Notes under the pieces: model-generated | Seen by the model: the letters and a program-made list of their open reading frames with translations, nothing else | What the model was told of the DNA's origin: nothing | Database searches by the model: none | Sequence record: DRR378314_197 | Length of the DNA stretch: 64,000 nucleotides | Reading direction: 5' to 3' (one strand) | Made by a program: the position numbers and the translations under genes | Shown: one piece after another, positions 7,077-26,544 of the stretch | Layout: each line of letters opens with the position of its first letter | Position numbering within the stretch: the stretch's first letter is position 1

Positions 7077-7547
7077 ATGAAAAAATCACCTGAAAATTAT
7101 CAAATCGATGATCTGGACCGTTCCATACTAAGAACTCTGATGGAAGACGCACGTATTCCTTACGCTGAGCTGGCCAAACGCTATAAGGTGAGTCCGGCCA
7201 CTATTCACGTACGGGTTGAAAAAATGAAGCGTGCCGGGATTATTGAGGGTACGCGTTTACAGGTTAACGCCAAACGCTTAGGCTACGATGTCTGTTGTTT
7301 CATTGGCATTACGCTGAAAAGCGCGGGTGACTACCCGGCCGCAATTGAAAAACTGGAAAAGCTCGAAGAAGTTATTGAGGCTTACTACACCACCGGTCAG
7401 TACAACGTCTTTATTAAAATTATGACACCGTCAATAAACGAGCTACAACACACGCTAATCAATCGAATTCAGGCTATTGATGAAATACAATCGACAGAAA
7501 CGCTTATATCATTACAGCAACCCATTAACAGAGACATACAGCCATGA
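7077..7547 (+). CDS. asnC: Lrp-family regulator AsnC
   Basis: [32 protein letters not shown]; divergent from asnA. Confidence 0.95.
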
Positions 7548-8584
7548 GTCAGGACGTTAAACTAACAGAATACAGTCACGGTGCCGGTTGTGGCTGTAAA
7601 ATATCACCCCAGGTTCTGTCGACCATATTACAGAGCAAACTGGATATAGCACCCGATCCTAAACTGCTGGTGGGGAACAGCACCCGTGACGATGCTGCCG
7701 CCTATGACTTAGGCAACGGTCAGGTTGTATTAAGTACTACCGACTTCTTTATGCCAATTTGTGATGACCCTTTCGACTTTGGCCGCATAGCTGCAACAAA
7801 CGCTATTAGCGACATCTATGCTATGGGCGGTCAGCCTATAATGGCTATCGCTATTTTCGGCTGGCCAATTAACAAACTACCCGCGGAAGTGGCGCAGCAA
7901 GTTATTGATGGTGGTCGACAAGCCTGTGCTGACGCGGGCATTATGCTTGCCGGCGGACACAGTATTGATGCACCAGAGCCAATTTTCGGGCTAGCAGTCA
8001 CCGGTCAGGTAGAAAAACAAAAACTCAAACAAAACGATACGGCCCGGGAAGGCGATGTATTAATGCTAACCAAACCTTTAGGGGTTGGTATTTTAACTAC
8101 GGCACAAAAACAGAAAAAACTGTTGCCCGAGCATAGCGGAATTGCGATAGAGACCATGTGCCAGCTGAATCGAATTGGCAGCGTCTTTGCAGATATTAAA
8201 GGCATTAACGCCATGACAGACGTGACCGGATTCGGTTTAGCCGGACACTTGATTGAAATGGCTGAAGGTGCCGACCTTTATGCAAAAATACAGTTCGATA
8301 CAATCCCGACCTTGCCCCACGTACATGACTACCTCAATCAAGGCTGTGTTCCCGGAGGCAGCTTGCGCAACTTCGAGAGCTACGGTCAGCATATCAGCCC
8401 GGTACCTGAGCAACAGCGTAACCTTTTATGTGACCCGCAAACTTCCGGCGGCTTACTCATTAGTGTGGCAAAAGAAGACGTTGAAGCCGTTTATCAAACC
8501 TGTCGCGAACATAATCAATCAATTCAGATTATTGGTGAGCTCTATACTGCTGAAACGCAAACATACCGAGTGGTCGTTGAATAA
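7544..8584 (+). CDS. selD: selenide, water dikinase (Cys form)
   Basis: [46 protein letters not shown]. Confidence 0.97.
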
Positions 8585-9589
8585 ATGTCTGGTAAATGGA
8601 TAACCCACTCACAATTTGATCAACTGTTTATTAACGATACCCCCTTGCTGGATTTAAGAGCTCCGGCGGAATTTAAAAAAGGCGCTTTTAGTACCGCGGT
8701 GAACCAACCTCTAATGACAGACAACGAGCGCGCTAAAGTGGGTACTTGTTATAAACAGCACGGTCAGGATGCCGCTATTGCGCTGGGACACGAGCTGGTC
8801 AGCGGAGAAACAAAACAACAAAGAATTAGCGCCTGGAAAAGTTTTTTCAATACACATCCAGATGGTCTGATTTATTGTTTCCGGGGCGGTTTACGATCAC
8901 AAATAGTACAACAGTGGTTAAATGATGAAGGCGTTGCCCGACCTCGTATTGAGGGAGGTTATAAAGCACTCAGACAACACCTGATTCAGCGCACGCAAGA
9001 GCTTGTCTCCGAGTTTAACTGGATTGTAGTAAGCGGCCGCACCGGCTGTCAGAAAACAGAGTTTATTAAGAATCAGCCGAACTCAATTGACTTAGAAGGC
9101 TTAGCCCACCACAGAGGGTCCGCATTCGGCCGTTACCCCGAGCCTCAACCCACCCAGATTGACTTTGAAAACCAATTAGCCGTTGAACTGATAAAACTTA
9201 AGGCTCATGGCGCGACCACCCTCTTTATTGAGGACGAAGGCAGCCATATTGGCTCGGTTTCCGTTCCTGAATGCCTGCGCCACGCCACTCAAAAAGCTGA
9301 GCGTCACCCTATTAAAGCAAGTATAGAGCAACGTGTAGAAGTCATTTACCAGGAATATGTTGTAGCAGCCCAAGGGCTTTATCCGTCACGTGAGCAGTTT
9401 GAAAATTATCTAATCGACAGTTTAGCCCGAACCCGCAAGCGGCTCGGTGACCTCCGCTTTCGCCAACTGTTCGGTATATTGCAACAAGCGTTAAACCGTG
9501 ACAGCGCAGAACTGCATAAACAGTGGATAGAAGGCTTACTGGTTGACTACTACGACCCCATGTACGACTACCAAATGAAAAAGCGATAA
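8585..9589 (+). CDS. mnmH: tRNA 2-selenouridine synthase
   Basis: rhodanese YCFRGGLRS, GGYKALR, DLEGLAHHRGSAFG, YYDPMYDYQ; abuts selD. Confidence 0.95.
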   Translation: MSGKWITHSQFDQLFINDTPLLDLRAPAEFKKGAFSTAVNQPLMTDNERAKVGTCYKQHGQDAAIALGHELVSGETKQQRISAWKSFFNTHPDGLIYCFRGGLRSQIVQQWLNDEGVARPRIEGGYKALRQHLIQRTQELVSEFNWIVVSGRTGCQKTEFIKNQPNSIDLEGLAHHRGSAFGRYPEPQPTQIDFENQLAVELIKLKAHGATTLFIEDEGSHIGSVSVPECLRHATQKAERHPIKASIEQRVEVIYQEYVVAAQGLYPSREQFENYLIDSLARTRKRLGDLRFRQLFGILQQALNRDSAELHKQWIEGLLVDYYDPMYDYQMKKR

Positions 9590-9683: not shown

Positions 9684-12302
9684 ATGTTGAAACGAATGTT
9701 AAGCCGTGTCACCGCGGCCGCATTGGTCATCGTTGCCCTGCCTTCTATGGCAGCAACAAAAGACCTTTCTTACTATCTGCCACAGGATGTCAGTTACAAC
9801 CCGGAAATTACCAAACCCAAAGATGTGCTTGGTTATCAGGTTGGTGAATGGCATGCCCGCCCCGAACAAATTGTAAAGTATATGGAAGTTCTGGCCGAAG
9901 AGTCAGATCGCATTACGCTGGAAGTGACCGGTCGCACACATGAGCAGCGTCCTTTGTTACTTCTTACCGTCACCTCAGAAAACAACCACCGCAATATTGA
10001 TGACGTTCGTGAGCGTCATTTGGCCGCAGCTGATCCAAACCGTGATGCCGACCCGGACAATACGCCGGTCGTAATGTACATGGGCTATAGTATTCACGGG
10101 GACGAATCGAGCGGCAGTAATGCAGCAATACTGTTTGCTTATTACCTTGCCGCGGCAGAAGGTGAAGCTGTGGATGAGCTTTTGAGCGATTCAGTTATTC
10201 TGCTTGATCCGGCGTTTAACCCTGATGGACTAGCTCGCTTTGCACAATGGGCAAACCAGCACCGCAGTCAAAATCTGGTTGCCGATCCACAGCATCGTGA
10301 GCACGTGCAACCTTTTATTCGTGGCCGGGTCAACCATTACTGGTTCGATATGAACCGCGACTGGCTGTTACTGCAACACCCTGAATCGCGCGCGCGTATC
10401 GCTAACTTTCAGAAATGGAAGCCAAACGTACTGACCGATTACCACGAAATGGGAACCAACAGCACGTATTTCTTCCAGCCGGGTATTCCGTCTCGTAAAA
10501 ACCCATTAACGCCAGATGAAAACGTGCGCTTAACCGAAATTCTTGCGTCAGAACACGCCGACTCGCTGGATGATATTGGCAGCCTGTATTACACCGAAGA
10601 GTCATTTGATGACTTCTATTATGGCAAAGGCTCTACCTACCCTGACATTCAGGGCGCCGTAGGTATTTTATTTGAACAAGCCTCCAGCCGAGGACACTTG
10701 CAGGACTCGGTTAATGGTGAGGTCAGCTTTCCGTTCACTATTCGTAACCAGTTTGTCGCCTCACTCAGTACCATTTACGGCACACACAAAAACAAAAGTC
10801 GTTTTATTGAGTTTCAGGAGCGTGCTTACGACGAAGGCATGGAGGCCGCACAAAAAGCCAAGTTTGAAGGTTATCTAATTGGTGACTCAAGCGATCCGTC
10901 GCGTGTAGAAGGTCTACTGGAAATCTTTAAACAGCACGGTATTAAAGCTTATCGTGTAGAAAAAGATATTGAACAGAACGGCACTCAGTTTAAAGCCGGA
11001 AGCAGTTATTATATCCCTCTGGCTCAGGCTCAGTACGGTTTGATTCAGGGAATATTCAGTACGCGCAAGAACTTCCCGAACAATACCTTCTACGATGTTT
11101 CAGGCTGGACTCTGCCATTAGCCTTTAACGTGCCATTTGAGACTCATCGTGGTCGTATTCAAATTGCGGATAATGCCTGGGATGCGCCAAAACGCAAGAC
11201 GTCGGCTCTCACTGATGCCTACGCTTACGCATTTAACTGGAACGATTACTTCGCTCCGGGTTTATTACAAGAGTTGCTGGAGCAGAACATTCACGTTCGT
11301 CAGACAACAAAACCCTTCACTGTAGAAGGTGAACAAGGCCGTCAGGAGTTTTCAGCCGGTTCTATTGTTGTACCTAAAGCCTATCAGGAACGGGAATGGC
11401 GCGATGTACAACGTCGTCTGGCTACCGCAGCAAAAGAAAAAGGTATTCAGGTAACCTCTATCGAGACCGGATTAACACCTGAAGGTGTTGACCTGGGTAG
11501 CCGCAATATTCAACCGGTGGAAAAGCCCAGCGTAATGATGCTGACCGGCGAAGGGGTTAACCTTTACGAAGCTGGGGAAACCTGGTACTACCTTGACCGC
11601 CACGTAGGTATTCCATTGTCGATGGTTGATACTGAACGTCTGCCCAGCGCTGACTTAACCCGTTATAGCCATATTATTATGGTGGACGGACATTACAGCA
11701 ATTTAGATAAACAACTGCGTAAAAAAATCCAAAACTGGGTAAGCCAGGGTGGAACAATAATTGGTCAGCGTGGTGGTGCTGAATGGTTAGCAGAAAATGG
11801 TCTTCTGCAAACTCGCTTTATTGATGATGCCGTCTTCCAGAGCGCTTTTACTAAAAAGCAGCTAAGTTACGAAGAGCGCGACGACTTCTACGCTGAACAG
11901 CGAATTGCCGGAGCGATATTCTCAATGGATGTCGATACTTCTCACCCATTATTCTTTGGCTTCCCGCGTGACCAAATGCCAGTATTCAAGAATTCGGCTG
12001 CCGCCATGGAAGAACCCGAGTCGCCTTTCGTTTCAGTCGCTCGCTATTCGGAGCAGCCTTTAATGAGTGGTTACACTGATGAGCGCAATCGCGAAATACT
12101 AAAAGGTAAAACCAATATTGCCGCCCATCGTTTAGGCAACGGTCAGGTAATTGGTTTTGCCGACAACATTAATTTCCGCGCCTATTTTTGGGGGACATCC
12201 AAGTTACTCAGTAATGCTATTTATTTAGCTCCCCGTATTCAGGTTTACGCGAAAAAACTGGACGATAAAGCAGCAGCGGATGCCGCCGCTGAAGCCCATT
12301 AA
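9684..12302 (+). CDS. secreted M14 zinc carboxypeptidase-like protein
   Basis: signal peptide, IHGDE, NPDG, DMNRDW, DYHEM. Confidence 0.88.
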   Translation: MLKRMLSRVTAAALVIVALPSMAATKDLSYYLPQDVSYNPEITKPKDVLGYQVGEWHARPEQIVKYMEVLAEESDRITLEVTGRTHEQRPLLLLTVTSENNHRNIDDVRERHLAAADPNRDADPDNTPVVMYMGYSIHGDESSGSNAAILFAYYLAAAEGEAVDELLSDSVILLDPAFNPDGLARFAQWANQHRSQNLVADPQHREHVQPFIRGRVNHYWFDMNRDWLLLQHPESRARIANFQKWKPNVLTDYHEMGTNSTYFFQPGIPSRKNPLTPDENVRLTEILASEHADSLDDIGSLYYTEESFDDFYYGKGSTYPDIQGAVGILFEQASSRGHLQDSVNGEVSFPFTIRNQFVASLSTIYGTHKNKSRFIEFQERAYDEGMEAAQKAKFEGYLIGDSSDPSRVEGLLEIFKQHGIKAYRVEKDIEQNGTQFKAGSSYYIPLAQAQYGLIQGIFSTRKNFPNNTFYDVSGWTLPLAFNVPFETHRGRIQIADNAWDAPKRKTSALTDAYAYAFNWNDYFAPGLLQELLEQNIHVRQTTKPFTVEGEQGRQEFSAGSIVVPKAYQEREWRDVQRRLATAAKEKGIQVTSIETGLTPEGVDLGSRNIQPVEKPSVMMLTGEGVNLYEAGETWYYLDRHVGIPLSMVDTERLPSADLTRYSHIIMVDGHYSNLDKQLRKKIQNWVSQGGTIIGQRGGAEWLAENGLLQTRFIDDAVFQSAFTKKQLSYEERDDFYAEQRIAGAIFSMDVDTSHPLFFGFPRDQMPVFKNSAAAMEEPESPFVSVARYSEQPLMSGYTDERNREILKGKTNIAAHRLGNGQVIGFADNINFRAYFWGTSKLLSNAIYLAPRIQVYAKKLDDKAAADAAAEAH

Positions 12303-12321
12303 TTAATAAATTAATAGAGAT

Positions 12322-12357
12322 AAAACCGCTAGGATTTTTTGTCTTAGCGGTTTTTTT
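12322..12357 (+). terminator. intrinsic terminator after the M14 gene
   Basis: AAAACCGCTAGGA-loop-TCTTAGCGGTTTT followed by a T run. Confidence 0.8.
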
Positions 12358-12437
12358 ACACTTGGATATATTGGTTGTTTTTCGAATAATGGTCTACCTT
12401 ACTAATTGAATCTTCTAAATTAATCAGTGAGGTGTAT

Positions 12438-12611
12438 ATGTTACGTTGGGTTCTAATCTTTCTAGCCGTGGCTGTAGTTGCCGCTATTTTAGGCTTTGGC
12501 GGAATTGCCGGAACAGCTGCCGGAATAGCTAAAATTATCTTCTATATCTTTATTATCCTCTTTGCGATTTCTTTAGTCGTTCGCCTGCTTCAGGGGAATA
12601 AAAGGCTTTAA
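12438..12611 (+). CDS. DUF1328/UPF0391 (YtjA-like) small membrane protein, 57 aa
   Basis: translated by hand: [63 protein letters not shown] Shine-Dalgarno. Confidence 0.92.
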
Positions 12612-12648
12612 ATGTTTTAGCCTTTGTTAGATATTAGACATTGGTCGT

Positions 12649-12695
12649 ATGCCAACCGTTATTGAGTTTACGCTACAATAACGGTTGGCATTTTT
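12649..12695 (+). repeat. perfect 16-bp inverted repeat followed by a T tract (terminator or regulatory hairpin)
   Basis: ATGCCAACCGTTATTG-N11-CAATAACGGTTGGCAT-TTTT. Confidence 0.75.
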
Positions 12696-12733
12696 CGTTA
12701 TCTGTCTAACACTACAACAATGAGGCTCTTGCC

Positions 12734-14413
12734 ATGAACGCAATCGTAATGATGGTTCTGGGTTTAGGCGCAATGTTTCTCGGTTATGTTTTTTACTCTA
12801 AATTTATTGCTGAGAAAATTTTTAAGCTTGATCCGAACTTCAGAACACCCGCTCACGAATTAGAAGACGGAGTCGACTTCGTCCCTACCAATAAATACGT
12901 TCTGTGGGGCCACCACTTTACTTCTGTAGCCGGTGCGGCACCTATTATTGGTCCTGCCATTGCGGTTATCTGGGGTTGGGTACCTGCTTTCTTATGGGTT
13001 ATTTTCGGTACCATATTCTTTGCTGGCGTACACGATGCTGGCGCGATCTGGGCAAGTAACCGTAATAAAGCCAAATCTATTGGTAACTTGACTGGCGATG
13101 TTGTTGGCAAACGCTCTCAAACGCTGTTCATGATCGTTATCTTCCTTGTGTTACTAATGGTCAACGCGGTTTTCGCTACTGCTATTTCAGGTCTGTTGAT
13201 TAAATTCTCCAGCTCAGTAGTGCCAGTTTGGGGTGCTATTTTTGTCGCACTTATTATCGGACAAATTATTTTCCGTAAATGGATGGGCTTAGGTGCAATA
13301 TCCATTATCGGTGTACTGGCACTGTACGCACTTATATGGGCAGGTCCCTCATTTCCAATAGAATTGCCAGAAACGGTAATGGGTATCAGTGACAACGCGC
13401 AATGGGTTCTTATCCTGTTTGGCTACGCCGCCATCGCTTCATTACTGCCTGTTTGGATGTTGCTTCAGCCACGTGACTACATCAATGGCCTACAGCTATT
13501 CATTGGTCTTATTTTGCTTTACGGTGCCACGTTATTACTGGCTCCGGAAATTTCAGCTCCGGCCTTCAATAGCAATACCCCGGAAGGCACTCCTTCGATG
13601 TTGCCACTGTTGTTCGTTACCATAGCCTGTGGAGCAATTTCGGGCTTCCACGGTCTGGTTGCATCGGGTACAACCTCGAAGCAACTTGATAAAGAAACCG
13701 ACGCCCGTTTTGTCGGATACTTTGGTGCGGTTGGTGAAGGCTCATTGTCGCTGGCGACTATCATCGCCGCCACAGCCGGTTTTGCAACATTAGCCGACTG
13801 GGAAGCGGTCTACTCATCTTTCGGACAAGGCGGCGTATCAGCCTTTGTTGAAGGTGGCGCCAACATTATTAGTCAGGGGCTTGGCCTGGACATTGGCGTA
13901 TCAGAAACCCTGCTGACGGTAATGGCTGTGCTTTTTGCCGGTACCACAATGGATACTGGATTACGTCTGCAACGCTATATTTTCCAGGAATGGGGAAACC
14001 TGTATAACATTAACTGGATGCAAAAAGCCTTTCCGGCAACGATGCTAGCTGTAGGAAGCTGCTTATTGTTAGCCTTCGGTGCTGGCGGCGCAGACGGTTC
14101 CGGCGGCTTAGTTATCTGGCCTCTGTTCGGTACCACAAACCAGTTATTAGCAGGGTTGACCTTGTTGGTTATTACGGTCATGTTGGTGCGCTTAGGCCGA
14201 CCAATGTATTACACCTTAATACCGTTAATTTTCCTGTTGATAATGACAGTCTTCGCTCTTATTGTTCAGCTTAAAGATTTCTATAACAGCGGTGACTGGT
14301 TCTTAATGGGTCTGGATTTAGTGGTGCTGGTTGCCGCTATCTGGATTGCTCTTGAAGCTAGCGCAGGCTTAACTAAAATCCGTAAGGAACAAAAAGCCCA
14401 GAAGCAGCAATAA
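12734..14413 (+). CDS. cstA: CstA-family (carbon starvation A-like) transporter
   Basis: GHHFTSVAGAAPIIGP, IACGAISGFH, TTMDTGLR, IWPLFGTTNQLLA; many hydrophobic segments. Confidence 0.92.
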   Translation: MNAIVMMVLGLGAMFLGYVFYSKFIAEKIFKLDPNFRTPAHELEDGVDFVPTNKYVLWGHHFTSVAGAAPIIGPAIAVIWGWVPAFLWVIFGTIFFAGVHDAGAIWASNRNKAKSIGNLTGDVVGKRSQTLFMIVIFLVLLMVNAVFATAISGLLIKFSSSVVPVWGAIFVALIIGQIIFRKWMGLGAISIIGVLALYALIWAGPSFPIELPETVMGISDNAQWVLILFGYAAIASLLPVWMLLQPRDYINGLQLFIGLILLYGATLLLAPEISAPAFNSNTPEGTPSMLPLLFVTIACGAISGFHGLVASGTTSKQLDKETDARFVGYFGAVGEGSLSLATIIAATAGFATLADWEAVYSSFGQGGVSAFVEGGANIISQGLGLDIGVSETLLTVMAVLFAGTTMDTGLRLQRYIFQEWGNLYNINWMQKAFPATMLAVGSCLLLAFGAGGADGSGGLVIWPLFGTTNQLLAGLTLLVITVMLVRLGRPMYYTLIPLIFLLIMTVFALIVQLKDFYNSGDWFLMGLDLVVLVAAIWIALEASAGLTKIRKEQKAQKQQ

Positions 14414-14433
14414 GAGTAACGGGAGTAAGTAGC

Positions 14434-14706
14434 ATGAATATACAGTCAGTGCGCCGTTGGTTCAGCCGGGCAAGTGATTTGGCCAATGAGTTTTATAATG
14501 CGCCCTATCGCTCTGCTATTGCCCGGGCAAAGCGCGACGAAGACGATTTATTCATGCTACTGGTTTTTTCTGAAATGATGGGCGTGCCGAACCCGGCCGC
14601 CTATTATACTTTAGAGTTACAGCCATTAATGCTGGAACGTTTCCACGAATGGCATCAACGCATGGGGATGGAACACTCACCTCTTGATCACTTCCGTTGT
14701 TGCTAA
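14434..14706 (+). CDS. small CstA-associated protein ending Cys-Cys-stop (cory-CC-star-like)
   Basis: EFYNAPYR..IAR..RDEDDLFMLLVFSE..GVPNP..YYTLEL.P...E.FHEWH.RMG..HSPLD.FRCC*; GGGAG Shine-Dalgarno. Confidence 0.8.
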   Translation: MNIQSVRRWFSRASDLANEFYNAPYRSAIARAKRDEDDLFMLLVFSEMMGVPNPAAYYTLELQPLMLERFHEWHQRMGMEHSPLDHFRCC

Positions 14707-14741
14707 TTTTATAACCCGACCAAAAACAGGGTTCATTTCTC

Positions 14742-15752
14742 ATGTTGTTAAGCGATAAAAAAGTTTTATTAGTTGGTGGTAAAGGCGGAGTTGGTAAAAC
14801 AACCGTGTCTTCTGCTCTGGCGGTTCTTGCTGCACGCCAAGGTAAAAAGGTATTGCTGGTTTCAACCGACCCGGCGCATAGCCTGGCCGACGTATTCGAC
14901 AAGAAAATCGGCGATAAAAAAACTGTTATGCGCGAAAATTTAACCGCATTAGAAATTGATCCTGACCACGAAGTTAAGGCTCATATTGAACGCGTCAGTT
15001 CTCAAATGAAGCGCTTTACAAACCCCGATCTCTTTCCCGAAATTGAACGCCAGATGCGTTTAACCCAGCAGTCTCCGGGAGCCCAGGAGGCTGCTTTGCT
15101 AGAGCGCATTTGCAACGTCATTGATGAAGCAGAGAAAGACTACGATTTGTTAATTTTTGACACAGCCCCGACCGGTCATACTTTGCGTTTACTGACATTA
15201 CCCGAGGCTATGGCAGCCTGGACGCAGGGAATGCTGCGCTCGCAAAAGCGCTCTGAAGACTTTGATTCAGTCCTTGAGCACTTATCACCCAAAGCTGGTA
15301 AAGATATTAATAACCCAATGGCTGACCCTCAAGACAATGCCAGCGACGGTATGACCGACCGCACTAAAGCAATTACAGAACAACTATTAACACGACAGAG
15401 GCTTTTTCAACGAACCCGACGCTTATTGCAGGATAGCAGTTACACATCCATTCTGTTTGTGTTAACACCAGAACGTCTCCCTATTCAGGAAACTGATCGG
15501 GCACTGCAGTCGTTAACCGCGGAAAAGTTACCCGTTGGTGGTGTTGTCATTAATAGAATATTGCCTGAACAGGCCGACGGCAGCTTTTTGGCCAAACGCA
15601 GGCTTCAGGAGAAAACTTACATAGAAGACATTCACAAACGTTTTAAAGCATGGCGAAATTACTCTCTTTATCTATTAGAAGAAGATGTCCAAGGTCTTGA
15701 TGCATTAGAAGCCTTTGCAAATAATCTGGAGCAAGCAGGATTTTCTGCCTAA
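14742..15752 (+). CDS. single-domain ArsA/Get3(TRC40)-family ATPase
   Basis: GKGGVGKTT, STDPAH, DTAPTGH. Confidence 0.93.
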   Translation: MLLSDKKVLLVGGKGGVGKTTVSSALAVLAARQGKKVLLVSTDPAHSLADVFDKKIGDKKTVMRENLTALEIDPDHEVKAHIERVSSQMKRFTNPDLFPEIERQMRLTQQSPGAQEAALLERICNVIDEAEKDYDLLIFDTAPTGHTLRLLTLPEAMAAWTQGMLRSQKRSEDFDSVLEHLSPKAGKDINNPMADPQDNASDGMTDRTKAITEQLLTRQRLFQRTRRLLQDSSYTSILFVLTPERLPIQETDRALQSLTAEKLPVGGVVINRILPEQADGSFLAKRRLQEKTYIEDIHKRFKAWRNYSLYLLEEDVQGLDALEAFANNLEQAGFSA

Positions 15753-15825
15753 CTGCCATTTTTTTGTCATCGCTTTCTCTAATAATACGTATACAGTGTG
15801 ATTGTTGTTAATTAAGGAGAAGACT

Positions 15826-16842
15826 ATGCGCGCTGTAGGATACAAAGAATCACTTCCGGCCGAAGATCCAAGTTCACTGCTGGATATTACTGTCGATGAT
15901 CCGGTTCCCGGAGCCAACGATTTACTGGTTAAAGTTAAAGCCGTAGCCGTTAACCCGGTTGATACCAAAATCAGAATGCGCATGGCGCCTGAATCTGGCC
16001 ACAAAATTATTGGCTGGGATGCAGTCGGGGAAGTTGTCTCTGCCGGAGATAAAGTAACAGGTTTTAAAACCGGAGACCGTGTTTGGTACGCGGGGGACTT
16101 GACCCGACCAGGTTGTAACGCGCAATTGCAAACCGTCGATTATCGCATTGTAGGCAAAGCACCGGAGAACCTCGATGACACTCAGGCAGCCGCCCTTCCA
16201 CTGACCAGCATTACTGCCTGGGAAATTCTGTTTGATCGCTTACAGGTTGATAAACCTTCACCGCACAACAAAAGAACGTTATTAATCATTGGTGGAGCCG
16301 GTGGCGTTGGTTCGGTCTTAATTCAGCTTGCCGCGCAGCTAACCGATGTCACCGTTATCGCTACGGCCTCCCGCGCAGAGTCTCAACAATGGGTAAAAGC
16401 TCTGGGGGCTGACCACGTTATCAATCATTACGACGACTTAGCTAAGCAGATAGAGTCTGTTGGCGCCTCTCCGGTAACCGATGTGGCCTGTTTGACTCAT
16501 AGCGAACAGTATTTCGCACAATGCATGAAATTAATGGCTCCTCAGGGTCGCTTTTGCCTTATAGATGATCCGTCAGAAAGTATCGACATTACCCTGATGA
16601 AACAAAAAAGTATCAGCTTGCACTGGGAGTTTATGTTTACCCGTTCTATGTTTACTACAGCAGACATGATAAAGCAGCAGGAATTACTGAACCATATTGC
16701 GAAAATGGTCGAAAAAGGCCAGATTCGTTCGACTCTGGGTAAAAGCTTTGGCGAAATGAATGCGAATAATCTTCGGAAGGCGCATCAGGCATTAGAAAGT
16801 CAGAAAACCATCGGAAAAATAGCGCTAACTGTCGCTGAATAG
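15826..16842 (+). CDS. MDR / zinc-binding alcohol dehydrogenase-family oxidoreductase
   Basis: AVNPVDTK, AAALPLT.ITAWE, GGAGGVGS, HWEFMFTR; AAGGAG Shine-Dalgarno before ATG 15826. Confidence 0.9.
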   Translation: MRAVGYKESLPAEDPSSLLDITVDDPVPGANDLLVKVKAVAVNPVDTKIRMRMAPESGHKIIGWDAVGEVVSAGDKVTGFKTGDRVWYAGDLTRPGCNAQLQTVDYRIVGKAPENLDDTQAAALPLTSITAWEILFDRLQVDKPSPHNKRTLLIIGGAGGVGSVLIQLAAQLTDVTVIATASRAESQQWVKALGADHVINHYDDLAKQIESVGASPVTDVACLTHSEQYFAQCMKLMAPQGRFCLIDDPSESIDITLMKQKSISLHWEFMFTRSMFTTADMIKQQELLNHIAKMVEKGQIRSTLGKSFGEMNANNLRKAHQALESQKTIGKIALTVAE

Positions 16843-25031: not shown

Positions 25032-26438
25032 TCAACTTGAGCAGGACAGTTCAGAGACCTGCTCCTCAGCCGTTGGCGGCTTCGCCCAGGGGCTTTCGCG
25101 TAAACGTTCAGAAAAGGGGTTCATTAAAGCCTGCACATAGTCGTGTAATAACGAGTCGTCACCTGCTTCCGCGGCATCGATTACCCGCTGCGCATGGTGT
25201 GTCCTGACAATAACCCAGGGGTTAACTTGCTTCATAACGTCAATATCGCTATTTCCGTTTACCGCGTTATTGTATTCCTGCCACCAGCTGTCACCGCTTC
25301 GTGCCAACAACCCTTTCGGTTCTTTCGCTTCAAGCGAGTCAATTAAGTCACGGAACGCCAATTGATAATCGGCCTGGTTCACCTCCAGCAGACTTAACCA
25401 GCCGCCAACTAACTGCATTCTCTCTTTGGCCGGTACTGACGACATCCCCAGACGCTTTGTCATTCGGTTTAAGTAAGCTTTTCGAAGTTCGGGTTCGTAA
25501 GTGTCCAGTGCCGCCCGCAGTTTATCCGCCTCAATTAAAGGGCTAACTGCCTGAGCCAGTCGCTGTAAATTCCAGAGTCCGACTCCCGGTTGTTGCAAAA
25601 GACCGTAACGCCCGCCCGCATCAGTATGATTAAAAATCTTTTCGGGCTGGTAATCATCCAGAAAGGCGTAGGGGCCAAAGTCGAAGGTTTCACCCACTAG
25701 ACTCATATTGTCGGTATTCATTACACCATGAATAAAACCATAAGCCTGCCACGCAGCAATCATCTCAGCGGTACTTTTAACCACCTGCGAAAATTGTTCC
25801 TCGATATCCGCATCCGCTAAGTGTGGCCAGGTCACTTCTATGGTGTCCTGCCAGAGGTTGTGCATGGTATCTTCCAGCCCGCGGTGAAAACAGTGTTCAA
25901 AATGACCAAAACGGACATGCGTCGTCGCTGTGCGGGCCAGCATCGCGCCGGGTTCAACCCGCTCCCGTTGTATCTTCCCTTGTGTCGAAATTAAGGCCAA
26001 AGCGCGCGTTGTCGGAATAGTTAGCGCGTGCAGCGCTTCGCTTGCCAGCAATTCCCGTATAGAAGAGCGCAACACCGCCCTGCCATCGGCACCCCGGCTG
26101 TACGGAGTCGGTCCGGCACCTTTGATATGGATATCCGTTATTTTATCTCCCACCACAGCCTGACCCAGCAGCAGGCCGCGACCATCGCCTAAATAAGGGT
26201 TAAAATGTCCGAACTGATGCCCTGCGTACTTTTGCGCAACCGGGTCACTTCCCGGCCAGTGCTCGAGCCCTCCCAGCCACTGAGACAATTCAGCGGGAGG
26301 CGTTTCTCCATTGGTTAATTCAGCCCATAATGAACTGTTTAACCAACGTAAATTGGCCTCGCCGTCGGGCTTTATTGGCTGGCGAGTTGTAATTTCCGGG
26401 AACTTACGGGCAAAGCGGTTATCAAAAACTATTGGCAT
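25032..26438 (-). CDS. selO: protein adenylyltransferase SelO/YdiU
   Basis: YAGHQFG, GDGRG, KGAG.TPYSR.ADGRAVLRS, HGVMNTDN, C-terminal SCSS; GGAGGA Shine-Dalgarno before ATG 26438. Confidence 0.93.
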   Translation of the reverse strand: MPIVFDNRFARKFPEITTRQPIKPDGEANLRWLNSSLWAELTNGETPPAELSQWLGGLEHWPGSDPVAQKYAGHQFGHFNPYLGDGRGLLLGQAVVGDKITDIHIKGAGPTPYSRGADGRAVLRSSIRELLASEALHALTIPTTRALALISTQGKIQRERVEPGAMLARTATTHVRFGHFEHCFHRGLEDTMHNLWQDTIEVTWPHLADADIEEQFSQVVKSTAEMIAAWQAYGFIHGVMNTDNMSLVGETFDFGPYAFLDDYQPEKIFNHTDAGGRYGLLQQPGVGLWNLQRLAQAVSPLIEADKLRAALDTYEPELRKAYLNRMTKRLGMSSVPAKERMQLVGGWLSLLEVNQADYQLAFRDLIDSLEAKEPKGLLARSGDSWWQEYNNAVNGNSDIDVMKQVNPWVIVRTHHAQRVIDAAEAGDDSLLHDYVQALMNPFSERLRESPWAKPPTAEEQVSELSCSS

Positions 26439-26544
26439 ACATCCTCCTGCTAAATAGATTGTTACACAGTCAGCGAGGCTTGCATAACTCATAATAAATC
26501 AGCTAAGGTCGCAACGTTTGGCCATTGGCAGCAAAGGAAGCCAC

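Follow-up and report, generated by a model that had tools for sequence, protein, structure and literature searches.

Operons that combine genes for a CstA-family permease, a small protein named CstX and a homologue of the ATPase ArsA were described by Castillo & Saier (2010; Int J Microbiol 2010:187373, PMC2963123), whose SEED survey gave 26 such CstA/ArsA-homologue operons from bacteria and archaea, with a CstX of ~90 amino acids (aa) in 24 of the 26. The ATPases reported there are single-domain proteins of ~330 aa without the three cysteines of ArsA, no arsR is present, and Idiomarina loihiensis (336 aa) and I. baltica are placed in Cluster 18 (the ArsA-homologue clusters are numbered 14–18). 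In the mechanism proposed by the same paper CstA is driven by the ArsA homologue, to which CstX, which "serves as the linker", couples it; the authors also stated that CstX never occurs without CstA and is a protein with a single transmembrane segment (TMS); in the available portion of its text cysteines are treated for ArsA only and the CC end of CstX goes unmentioned. Here we report on an operon of this type, cstA–cstX–ATPase, in 64,000 nucleotides (nt) of DNA from sequence record DRR378314_197 (referred to as the window, by which we mean the whole stretch that was analysed).

The original prediction for this locus presented the three genes as the best candidate in the window for an undescribed system. 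This claim falls, as cstA–cstX–arsA-homologue operons, including those of Idiomarina, are already found in Castillo & Saier 2010 (PMC2963123), and the accompanying idea of an ATPase that energises the carrier restates the 2010 hypothesis; we consider the interpretation reasonable and partly supported, but not new. The prediction had also named no functional study of the triple, and full-text literature searches turned up none; beyond the 2010 paper, the full-text literature gave no follow-up work on cory-CC-star/DUF7990 or on CstA together with ArsA/Get3. Bodensohn et al. 2019 (PMC6593721) describe single-domain bacterial Get3 homologues with a TRC40 insert and no CxxC motif and call their function unclear, with CstA unmentioned in the available text. 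What we add is the CstX–ATPase pair as the core of the unit, contexts in which this pair occurs without CstA, a split between short and long forms of CstA, and the result that no homology can be detected between CstX and DUF466.

The three-gene unit and its relatives

The window permease falls well within the CstA family (PF02554, 452.6 bits against a cut-off of 27) and under the cut-off of the E. coli CstA equivalog NF011590 (232.3 versus 1188), and a PDB sequence search with it returned no solved homologue. Across 71 orthologues, 229 of its 559 residues are at least 98% conserved, and these include C299 (within the motif TIACGAiSGFHG), C443, H41, H60, H61, H100 and H306. The small protein covers 79 of the 80 model positions of NF041419 and scores 142.4 bits against a curated cut-off of 80, in agreement with its earlier assignment to cory-CC-star. 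The Atlas assigns it to PF25952 (DUF7990), a domain also carried by its relatives, which are commonly misnamed "DNA helicase" in public records. From size, position and genus we infer that the CstX of 2010 and the NF041419/DUF7990 protein are one and the same. The ATPase matches TIGR00345 GET3_arsA_TRC40 (273.7 bits) and PF02374 ArsA_ATPase (266 bits, one domain), and is under the cut-offs for BagA/BagB, NosAFP and true ArsA (for the ArsA equivalogs TIGR04291 and NF041417, 153.2 versus 650 and 156.4 versus 800, respectively). The named records that best match the unit are Idiomarina species. Genome G001, the nearest of those compared and a single contig of 2.8 Mb, encodes an ATPase 99% identical to that of the window and has one CstA gene and one ArsA-type gene which adjoin each other. 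We regard the window unit as almost certainly an Idiomarina-type copy of the 2010 cstA–cstX–arsA-homologue operon.

The layout that had been read from the sequence was borne out by the list of open reading frames (ORFs), which has the three genes co-oriented with gaps of 20 nt and 35 nt and the FRCC-stop ending on the 90-aa protein (Table 1). The reported absence of ars genes nearby also held, with 0 ars families found among the 28 ORFs (non-overlapping, 90 aa or longer) of positions 1–31193 of the window (23 were scanned at E <= 1e-10, of which seven gave no family match at this threshold, and five were covered in a separate family scan).

The three genes had been put forward as a unit, and they are conserved as one. 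Taking the best 80 of at least 591 species loci that encode the small protein, and identifying neighbours by tblastn, we found that 78 have CstA on the upstream side of the small gene and 78 have the ATPase on its downstream side, and clustering all flanking ORFs of the 80 loci gave no fourth conserved gene. These loci span the Gammaproteobacteria, Betaproteobacteria, Acidobacteriota (Vicinamibacterales) and Gemmatimonadota (Longimicrobiales). One CstA miss (L037) is a contig that starts 138 nt before the small gene, and the two ATPase misses (L059, L076) are loci that end ~66–109 nt past it. Start/stop overlaps of -4 and -10 nt recur across many loci, these being rough values from longest-ORF calls. 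We note that a Vicinamibacterales locus (L038, 3724–5947) has two ORFs of 290 and 403 aa inserted between cstA and cstX, and that in Pseudidiomarina salinarum (L013, 4323–6004) cstA is split into frames of 353 and 188 aa while cstX and the ATPase gene are intact.

Identity to the window proteins in other phyla is 70–81% for the small protein, 61–64% for CstA and 39–45% for the ATPase, and mean pairwise distances across 62 operons are 0.280 for CstX, 0.275 for CstA and 0.439 for the ATPase. CstX is about as conserved as the permease and more so than the ATPase, which we counted toward a complex over a catalytic helper. Partial correlations of the distances in these operons are 0.55 for CstX–ATPase given CstA, 0.79 for CstA–ATPase given CstX and -0.08 for CstX–CstA given the ATPase; as the operons are kin, these values point weakly to the CstX–ATPase pair as the unit. 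The small protein exceeds the NF041419 cut-off in five genomes of an even sample of 251 gammaproteobacterial genomes, and full-length matches to the window ATPase (E <= 1e-40) occur in exactly the same five. A sixth genome (G144) has a divergent pair directly behind its CstA, and five further ATPase matches in this class sample are two-domain frames of ArsA size.

The permeases that accompany the pair differ in length from those of other loci. Where CstA is linked to DUF7990 and the ATPase it has a length of 528–588 aa (the short form), and where it is linked to DUF466 the length is 687–811 aa by longest ORF, mostly ~690–740 aa (the long form). An IQ-TREE tree of 46 rows separates the short form from the DUF466-linked long form with 100% support in the Shimodaira–Hasegawa-like approximate likelihood ratio test (SH-aLRT), and places the 14 CC-star-linked CstA rows in one group, also with 100% SH-aLRT; it should be noted that this tree was made by a quick search with five DUF466-linked rows, that L176 was dropped because of a wrong ORF call, and that the groups are defined by the very feature that was counted. 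A distinct short-form CstA clade thus accompanies the CstX–ATPase pair.

The association is not strict from the side of the permease. CstA is present in 38 of 250 genomes of the class sample (which includes two flagged as unpublished, G040 and G142), with 24 full long-form, 2 partial long-form and 12 short-form proteins. Six of the 12 short-form genes adjoin the pair, four (G126, G159, G114 and G154) have none in the downstream flank examined, and two are cut by the end of the contig. The four genes without the pair indicate that the short CstA fold can exist without it, and the pair adds function and is not required for the CstA fold. In a sample of 101 genomes, DUF466 is over its cut-off in seven, and these are the same seven that hold full long-form CstA (one being the unpublished G040).

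The CstA tree also has cases of mixed taxonomy (L023, L064, L086, L019 and L041). A CstA of Castellaniella (Betaproteobacteria) pairs with that of Gallaecimonas (Gammaproteobacteria), and a metagenome-assembled genome labelled Gammaproteobacteria clusters with Longimicrobiales (Gemmatimonadota). This mixing, taken with the high identity that the small protein keeps across phyla, suggests that the unit has been transferred horizontally as a whole, and we take the three genes to be a self-contained, horizontally mobile unit.

CstX and the ATPase as an obligate pair

A more distant branch was sampled by searching metagenome contigs with the Clostridium-like DUF7990 branch, and this provided 80 loci. 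The ATPase gene lies directly 3' of the small gene in 77 of them, two more are cut short, and in L102, the locus that differs, an IS110-family transposase follows the small gene in the place of the ATPase. Only 40 of these 80 loci have CstA, which is upstream in the same orientation in 25, divergent in 14 and downstream in 1; another 17 are uninformative on CstA. As the ATPase is constant and CstA variable in this branch, the CstX–ATPase pair is the invariant unit, and we conclude that CstX and the ATPase are an obligate pair.

CstX itself is highly conserved. In 53 diverse relatives, selected for their CC ending, neither C89 nor C90 varies, conservation of H71, W73 and H74 is 90% or higher, and the same set shows the conserved pattern D..F.LL.F.E..G.PNP...YTLEL.P.LLE.FH.WH.RMGM..SP.....CC. 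The AlphaFold2 model of CstX (predicted local distance difference test score, pLDDT, 84; predicted template modelling score, pTM, 0.46) has a helix at residues 3–48, a PNP turn, helices at 56–61 and 63–76, and an extended tail at 77–90. Residues 1–25 are strongly amphipathic and basic, and residues 37–60, which include a conserved Glu and the PNP turn, are moderately hydrophobic (mean Eisenberg 0.4–0.5). Model and hydrophobicity together suggest that CstX would form an amphipathic or hydrophobic interface hairpin that is not of transmembrane grade, rather than the single-TMS protein of 2010. Foldseek found no PDB structure that matches the model at E <= 10, a PDB sequence search with the CstX profile gave nothing, and a wide VIA-align search with the model gave just generic long-helix matches (Z <= 5.7, residues 1–51), which are uninformative.

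Not every member of the wider family has the CC tail. The endings found in distant members are DLDA, GFDA, DMDP, YDFT, YDFC and FDFCC, and most of the distant members are without both the CC tail and HxWH, yet keep the ATPase and often CstA. A selenocysteine form (Cys-TGA-stop) was found in 0 of 160 loci and was not confirmed. One locus, L154 (5286–5345), reads ...YDFC-TGA-TGC and is then open for 12 more codons, with an ambiguous downstream fold (z -2.8), and its nearest relatives end YDFC-TAA or FDFCC-stop; these data are ambiguous and neither confirm nor exclude a selenocysteine branch. We also note a 163-aa metagenome protein (P0218) in which the DUF7990 core is tandemly duplicated and which has no CC end, finishing ...HHLHGL instead.

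The other half of the pair has the hallmarks of an enzyme. Among 29 orthologues the ATPase motifs GGKGGVGKTT, STDPAHSL, FDTAPTGHTLRLL and FDTAPxGxTxRLL are invariant or nearly so, DTAPTGH is conserved, and there is no conserved Cys. By sequence the closest solved relatives are 5zme (Chlamydomonas ArsA1) and the archaeal Get3/TRC40 proteins 3zq6 (phmmer E 1.6e-54) and 3ug6, and ArsA of the E. coli type aligns with the window protein over the N-terminal 150 residues only. A Foldseek search with the AlphaFold2 model (pLDDT 80.7, pTM 0.79) placed 3zq6 at the top with a template modelling (TM) score of 0.84 (target-normalised), followed by 3ug6 and eukaryotic Get3, and the zinc motif C-E-F-C of 3zq6 is replaced by G-S-F-L. 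On the strength of the invariant P-loop, DPAHS and DTAP motifs and the Get3-like fold, the protein is predicted to be an active enzyme. Long helices at 144–181 and 206–230 flank an insert-like region at 181–205, of which residues 181–196 have a pLDDT under 50. The two helical segments are 30–32% charged, 32–36% hydrophobic and 4–5% Met, with conserved Arg and Glu positions, and this composition suggests that the helical subdomain would suit a polar ligand of its own better than transmembrane segments in general.

Possible roles of the pair

Our preferred explanation, to which we give a probability of roughly 0.4, is that CstX and the ATPase form an ATP-dependent accessory complex that may energise or gate CstA. 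The ATPase would act as an ATP-dependent homodimer, as Get3 and ArsA do, with CstX as its dedicated partner and the helical core of CstX (residues ~38–76) as the part that would bind it. The CstX tail, HxWHxRMGMxxSPxxxxxCC, might reach the cytoplasmic face of CstA, and the pair, once docked on the permease, would couple ATP binding and hydrolysis to the uptake of small carbon compounds (pyruvate or peptides, for example), either by energisation in the style of ArsA and ArsB or by gating. We favour an accessory complex because the gene coupling looks stoichiometric, CstX shows very high conservation, the distances of CstA and the ATPase vary together, and there are related carriers that function with no such pair. 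There are also precedents in E. coli, where CstA and YbdD are both reported to be necessary for pyruvate uptake (PMC5847655) and where btsT–yjiX–yjiA joins a CstA paralogue to an RCC-ended protein and a P-loop GTPase.

A number of observations weigh against this explanation. The ATPase is nearer in sequence and fold to the archaeal Get3 chaperones than to ArsA, and the E. coli carriers CstA and BtsT are given as proton symporters without such an ATPase (annotation; PMC5847655). All 25 of the distant members that lie behind a same-strand CstA are without CC, so the CC tail cannot be a general CstA contact, and the shared RCC tail as a common contact with CstA is a candidate that these members weaken. 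The 11 distant members that do have a CC tail include 0 behind a same-strand CstA, two with a divergent CstA, four with none and five for which this is unknown. Of the 63 informative distant loci, 23 have no CstA over an upstream stretch of 2.5 kb or more, and L053 is a true CstX–ATPase pair without CstA in the close branch; such pairs argue against a CstA-specific role and contradict what was stated in 2010 about CstX and CstA always occurring together.

What stands next to the pair when CstA is missing varies, and these neighbours likewise tell against a role confined to the permease. An Amt gene takes the place of cstA, on the same strand and directly before the small gene, in four loci of one lineage (L098, L099, L100 and L102), BrnQ is upstream of the pair in L133, and P-type metal ATPases, which need no extra energiser, are upstream in L124 and L163. 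PcrA/UvrD is found directly before the pair in L162, L168 and L173 (with ligA, for NAD-dependent DNA ligase, directly after it in L162 and L168), and a Lon-like protease is found upstream in L174. The PcrA/UvrD-adjacent lineage may be the source of the "DNA helicase" misannotation. Divergent upstream neighbours are an AAE permease (L137) and a Bmp binding protein (L121), and the remaining CstA-less distant loci have other neighbours or ORFs without a Pfam match. A transporter-related gene is thus just upstream in nine of the 23 CstA-less loci (Amt in four, P-type ATPase in two, and BrnQ, AAE permease and Bmp in one each), with four of these nine coming from a single lineage.

These contexts allow a broader version, which we think unlikely, in which CstX and the Get3-like ATPase would be a portable ATP-dependent module for unrelated transporters, usually CstA and in some lineages Amt, BrnQ or P-type ATPases, with the CC tail as a lineage-specific redox or metal switch. 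If this were true, ArsA–ArsB energisation and Get3–receptor docking would both have a counterpart in this prokaryotic module, which might even represent the state ancestral to the two, and it would contradict the 2010 view of CstX as belonging to CstA alone.

A second possibility, a live rival though one to which we give a low probability, is a Get3-like biogenesis chaperone, in which an ATPase dimer would deliver hydrophobic segments and, with CstX as co-chaperone, receptor or first client, would aid the insertion, assembly or quality control of permeases, here CstA. The match to archaeal Get3/TRC40 proteins (3zq6 being the best in both the sequence and the fold comparisons) and the insert-like region between the long ATPase helices are what such a chaperone would have, and Bodensohn et al. 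2019 (PMC6593721) suggest that insert-bearing, CxxC-less bacterial Get3 homologues are general chaperones; the helices that would form the client groove, however, have the charge and Met content given above and conserve specific polar residues, which would suit one dedicated ligand better than generic transmembrane segments, and the CXXC zinc motif is missing. Similarly, the moderately hydrophobic centre of CstX (37–60) and the placement of the pair beside several unrelated membrane transporters, or sometimes none, would fit a chaperone, but four of the 12 short-form CstA genes and all of the long-form ones exist without the pair, and the three genes are tightly coupled, probably in equimolar fashion, as would be expected of stable subunits more than of a chaperone that acts catalytically.

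It is quite improbable that the pair is in essence a thiol or metal module, in which CC and HxWH would bind a soft metal or metalloid or form a redox-active vicinal disulfide, and CstX would be a sensor or carrier that switches the ATPase or CstA, loosely as ArsD does for ArsA (ArsD uses vicinal cysteines). The conservation of C89, C90, H71, W73 and H74 in the CC-selected relatives, the accessible, extended tail in the model and the two invariant Cys and five invariant His of CstA would all serve such a module, but they are set against an ATPase with no conserved Cys and flanks with no conserved ars, metal or redox genes. The three metalloid cysteines of ArsA are likewise unconserved in the single-domain homologues (PMC2963123). 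DUF466 proteins, which follow other CstA genes and are not homologous to CstX, likewise end RCC, and some are reported to be Cys-Sec selenoproteins (Haft preprint, 10.1101/2022.07.06.499078), which speaks for such a module; on the other hand, redox or metal gating is weakened as a family-wide explanation by the distant relatives that are without the CC tail and HxWH and still keep the ATPase, often with CstA.

An independent cytosolic job, such as that of a holdase in starvation or stress that is simply expressed together with CstA and makes no contact with it, is very improbable, as although some pairs occur without CstA (the 23 distant loci and L053), lie between pcrA and ligA in one lineage (L162, L168) or have a universal stress protein gene downstream in another (L154, L155, L161, L165 and L166), the cstA–cstX–ATPase order is fixed in 78 of the 80 close loci across several phyla with differing flanks, a dedicated CstA clade accompanies the pair, the CstA–ATPase distances co-vary (partial r 0.79), and nine of the 23 CstA-less loci have transporter-related genes just upstream.

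Returning to an accessory complex of CstX and the ATPase, its interest lies in the carriers that it would serve, since CstA-family proteins are widespread importers of pyruvate and peptides, and a permease, an ATPase and a highly conserved mini-protein that are kept together in several hundred species, with at least four bacterial phyla among the best 80 loci, indicate an important function. The unit is small, with three genes, and comes from marine bacteria that are not pathogens. If the ATPase does energise or gate the carrier, the ArsA–ArsB principle would extend to nutrient uptake, and the Get3 homologues of bacteria, described as unclear in role in PMC6593721, would gain a concrete job.

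Genomic setting and known systems

The three genes and the hairpin before them are listed in Table 1. The hairpin has 16 base pairs followed by a U run and lies ~40–45 nt 5' of the cstA start codon; the surrounding sequence (12612–12740) folds with a dG of -44.5 kcal/mol (z -6.4), and 0 of 200 shuffles were equally stable. It is likely to be the terminator of the upstream DUF1328 gene, which encodes a 59-aa membrane protein (12432–12611) directly before it, and to mark the 5' boundary of the unit. A simple terminator scan did not have this hairpin among its listed sites. The position of the hairpin and U run leaves merely ~40–45 nt for a cstA promoter; a simple promoter scan gave no site in this gap, and a search of Rfam over 12250–15900 gave nothing at E <= 1. 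Contigs from RNA libraries of two studies span both gene junctions (X1 record 4 covers 13999–14977, and X5 records 19 and 20 cover one junction each), and this is a weak hint of co-transcription, as such contigs could derive from DNA and are not proof of a single transcript; a gap in their cover at ~15062–15182 carries no meaning.

Table 1. Coordinates of the cstA–cstX–ATPase unit and its 5' hairpin in the window.
Feature	Position	Strand	Family or basis
cstA, short-form CstA-family permease, 559 aa	12734..14413	+	PF02554
cstX, cory-CC-star / DUF7990 protein, 90 aa, ...DHFRCC-stop	14434..14706	+	NF041419
Single-domain Get3/ArsA-fold ATPase, 336 aa, 'arsA homologue', CstA-associated clade	14742..15752	+	TIGR00345, PF02374
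Hairpin + U run, likely intrinsic terminator of DUF1328 gene	12649..12694	+	sequence + fold

Just upstream, 9684–12302 encodes an 872-aa protein that begins with what resembles a signal peptide and has an M14 zinc-carboxypeptidase domain in its N-terminal part. It is kept at this position in four Idiomarina loci (L008–L011) and is absent there in the other 76 of the 80 loci, and it could feed peptides or amino acids to a CstA-type importer. The window also has selD (selenide, water dikinase; 7544–8581) and mnmH/selU (tRNA 2-selenouridine synthase; 8585–9586) at a distance of ~3 kb before the operon, and ~9 kb after it a gene for a SelO/YdiU adenylyltransferase (25035–26492). These selenium genes are curious given the Cys-Sec forms in DUF466, and their proximity may well be a coincidence.

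Four known systems can be compared with the window unit, and the likeness to E. coli is one of design. The analogies that had been drawn with cstA–ybdD and btsT–yjiX–yjiA are sound, as annotation places the genes side by side and names YjiA a P-loop GTPase, and YjiX has the ending MRCC: a gene for a CstA-family carrier is followed by one for a small protein ending RCC, with a P-loop NTPase as well at btsT. However, YbdD and YjiX are DUF466 proteins (PF04328), to which the window CstX gave no Pfam match at E <= 0.01, and homology between CstX and DUF466 was rejected as undetectable (hhalign probability 0.5%, with a DUF466 profile of just five sequences). The DUF466 examples behind CstA genes all end RCC, which is again a likeness of design to the window CstX and not membership. 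The E. coli carriers are of the long form (~690–740 aa) and belong to a clade separate from that of the window short form, and YjiA is annotated as a GTPase where the window NTPase is a Get3/ArsA ATPase. The same three-part design without CstX–DUF466 homology suggests that it has apparently arisen from non-homologous parts.

ArsA–ArsB(–ArsD) provides the working analogy for mechanism, in that both systems encode an ATPase of one superfamily next to a secondary carrier, which is able to act alone as well, and a small Cys-bearing partner could feed or couple the ATPase. It differs in that ArsA has two tandem domains (~580 aa) and the window ATPase has one, that the metalloid cysteines of ArsA (C113, C172 and C422 in E. 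coli) have no conserved Cys as counterpart in the window ATPase and no ars genes are nearby, and that the ArsB/Acr3 carriers are unrelated to the window CstA.

Get3/TRC40 is nearest in fold and sequence and shares the deviant Walker A, the switch motifs and a helical subdomain, in which the window ATPase has an insert-like region; the window ATPase is without the CXXC motif through which Get3 binds zinc at its dimer interface, and its helical subdomain is charged. Get3/TRC40 serves tail-anchored clients together with membrane receptors (Get1/2, WRB/CAML), whereas the dedicated neighbours of the window ATPase are a small, soluble-looking protein and a permease. We know of no Get1/Get2-like receptor for an ATPase of the window type. 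Some functional Get3 forms are likewise reported to be without CxxC (PMC6593721).

The closest system is that of the 2010 cstA–cstX–arsA-homologue operons, from which the window unit does not differ in kind: gene set, gene order and protein sizes are shared, ars genes are missing from both, and the unit is a member of this group.

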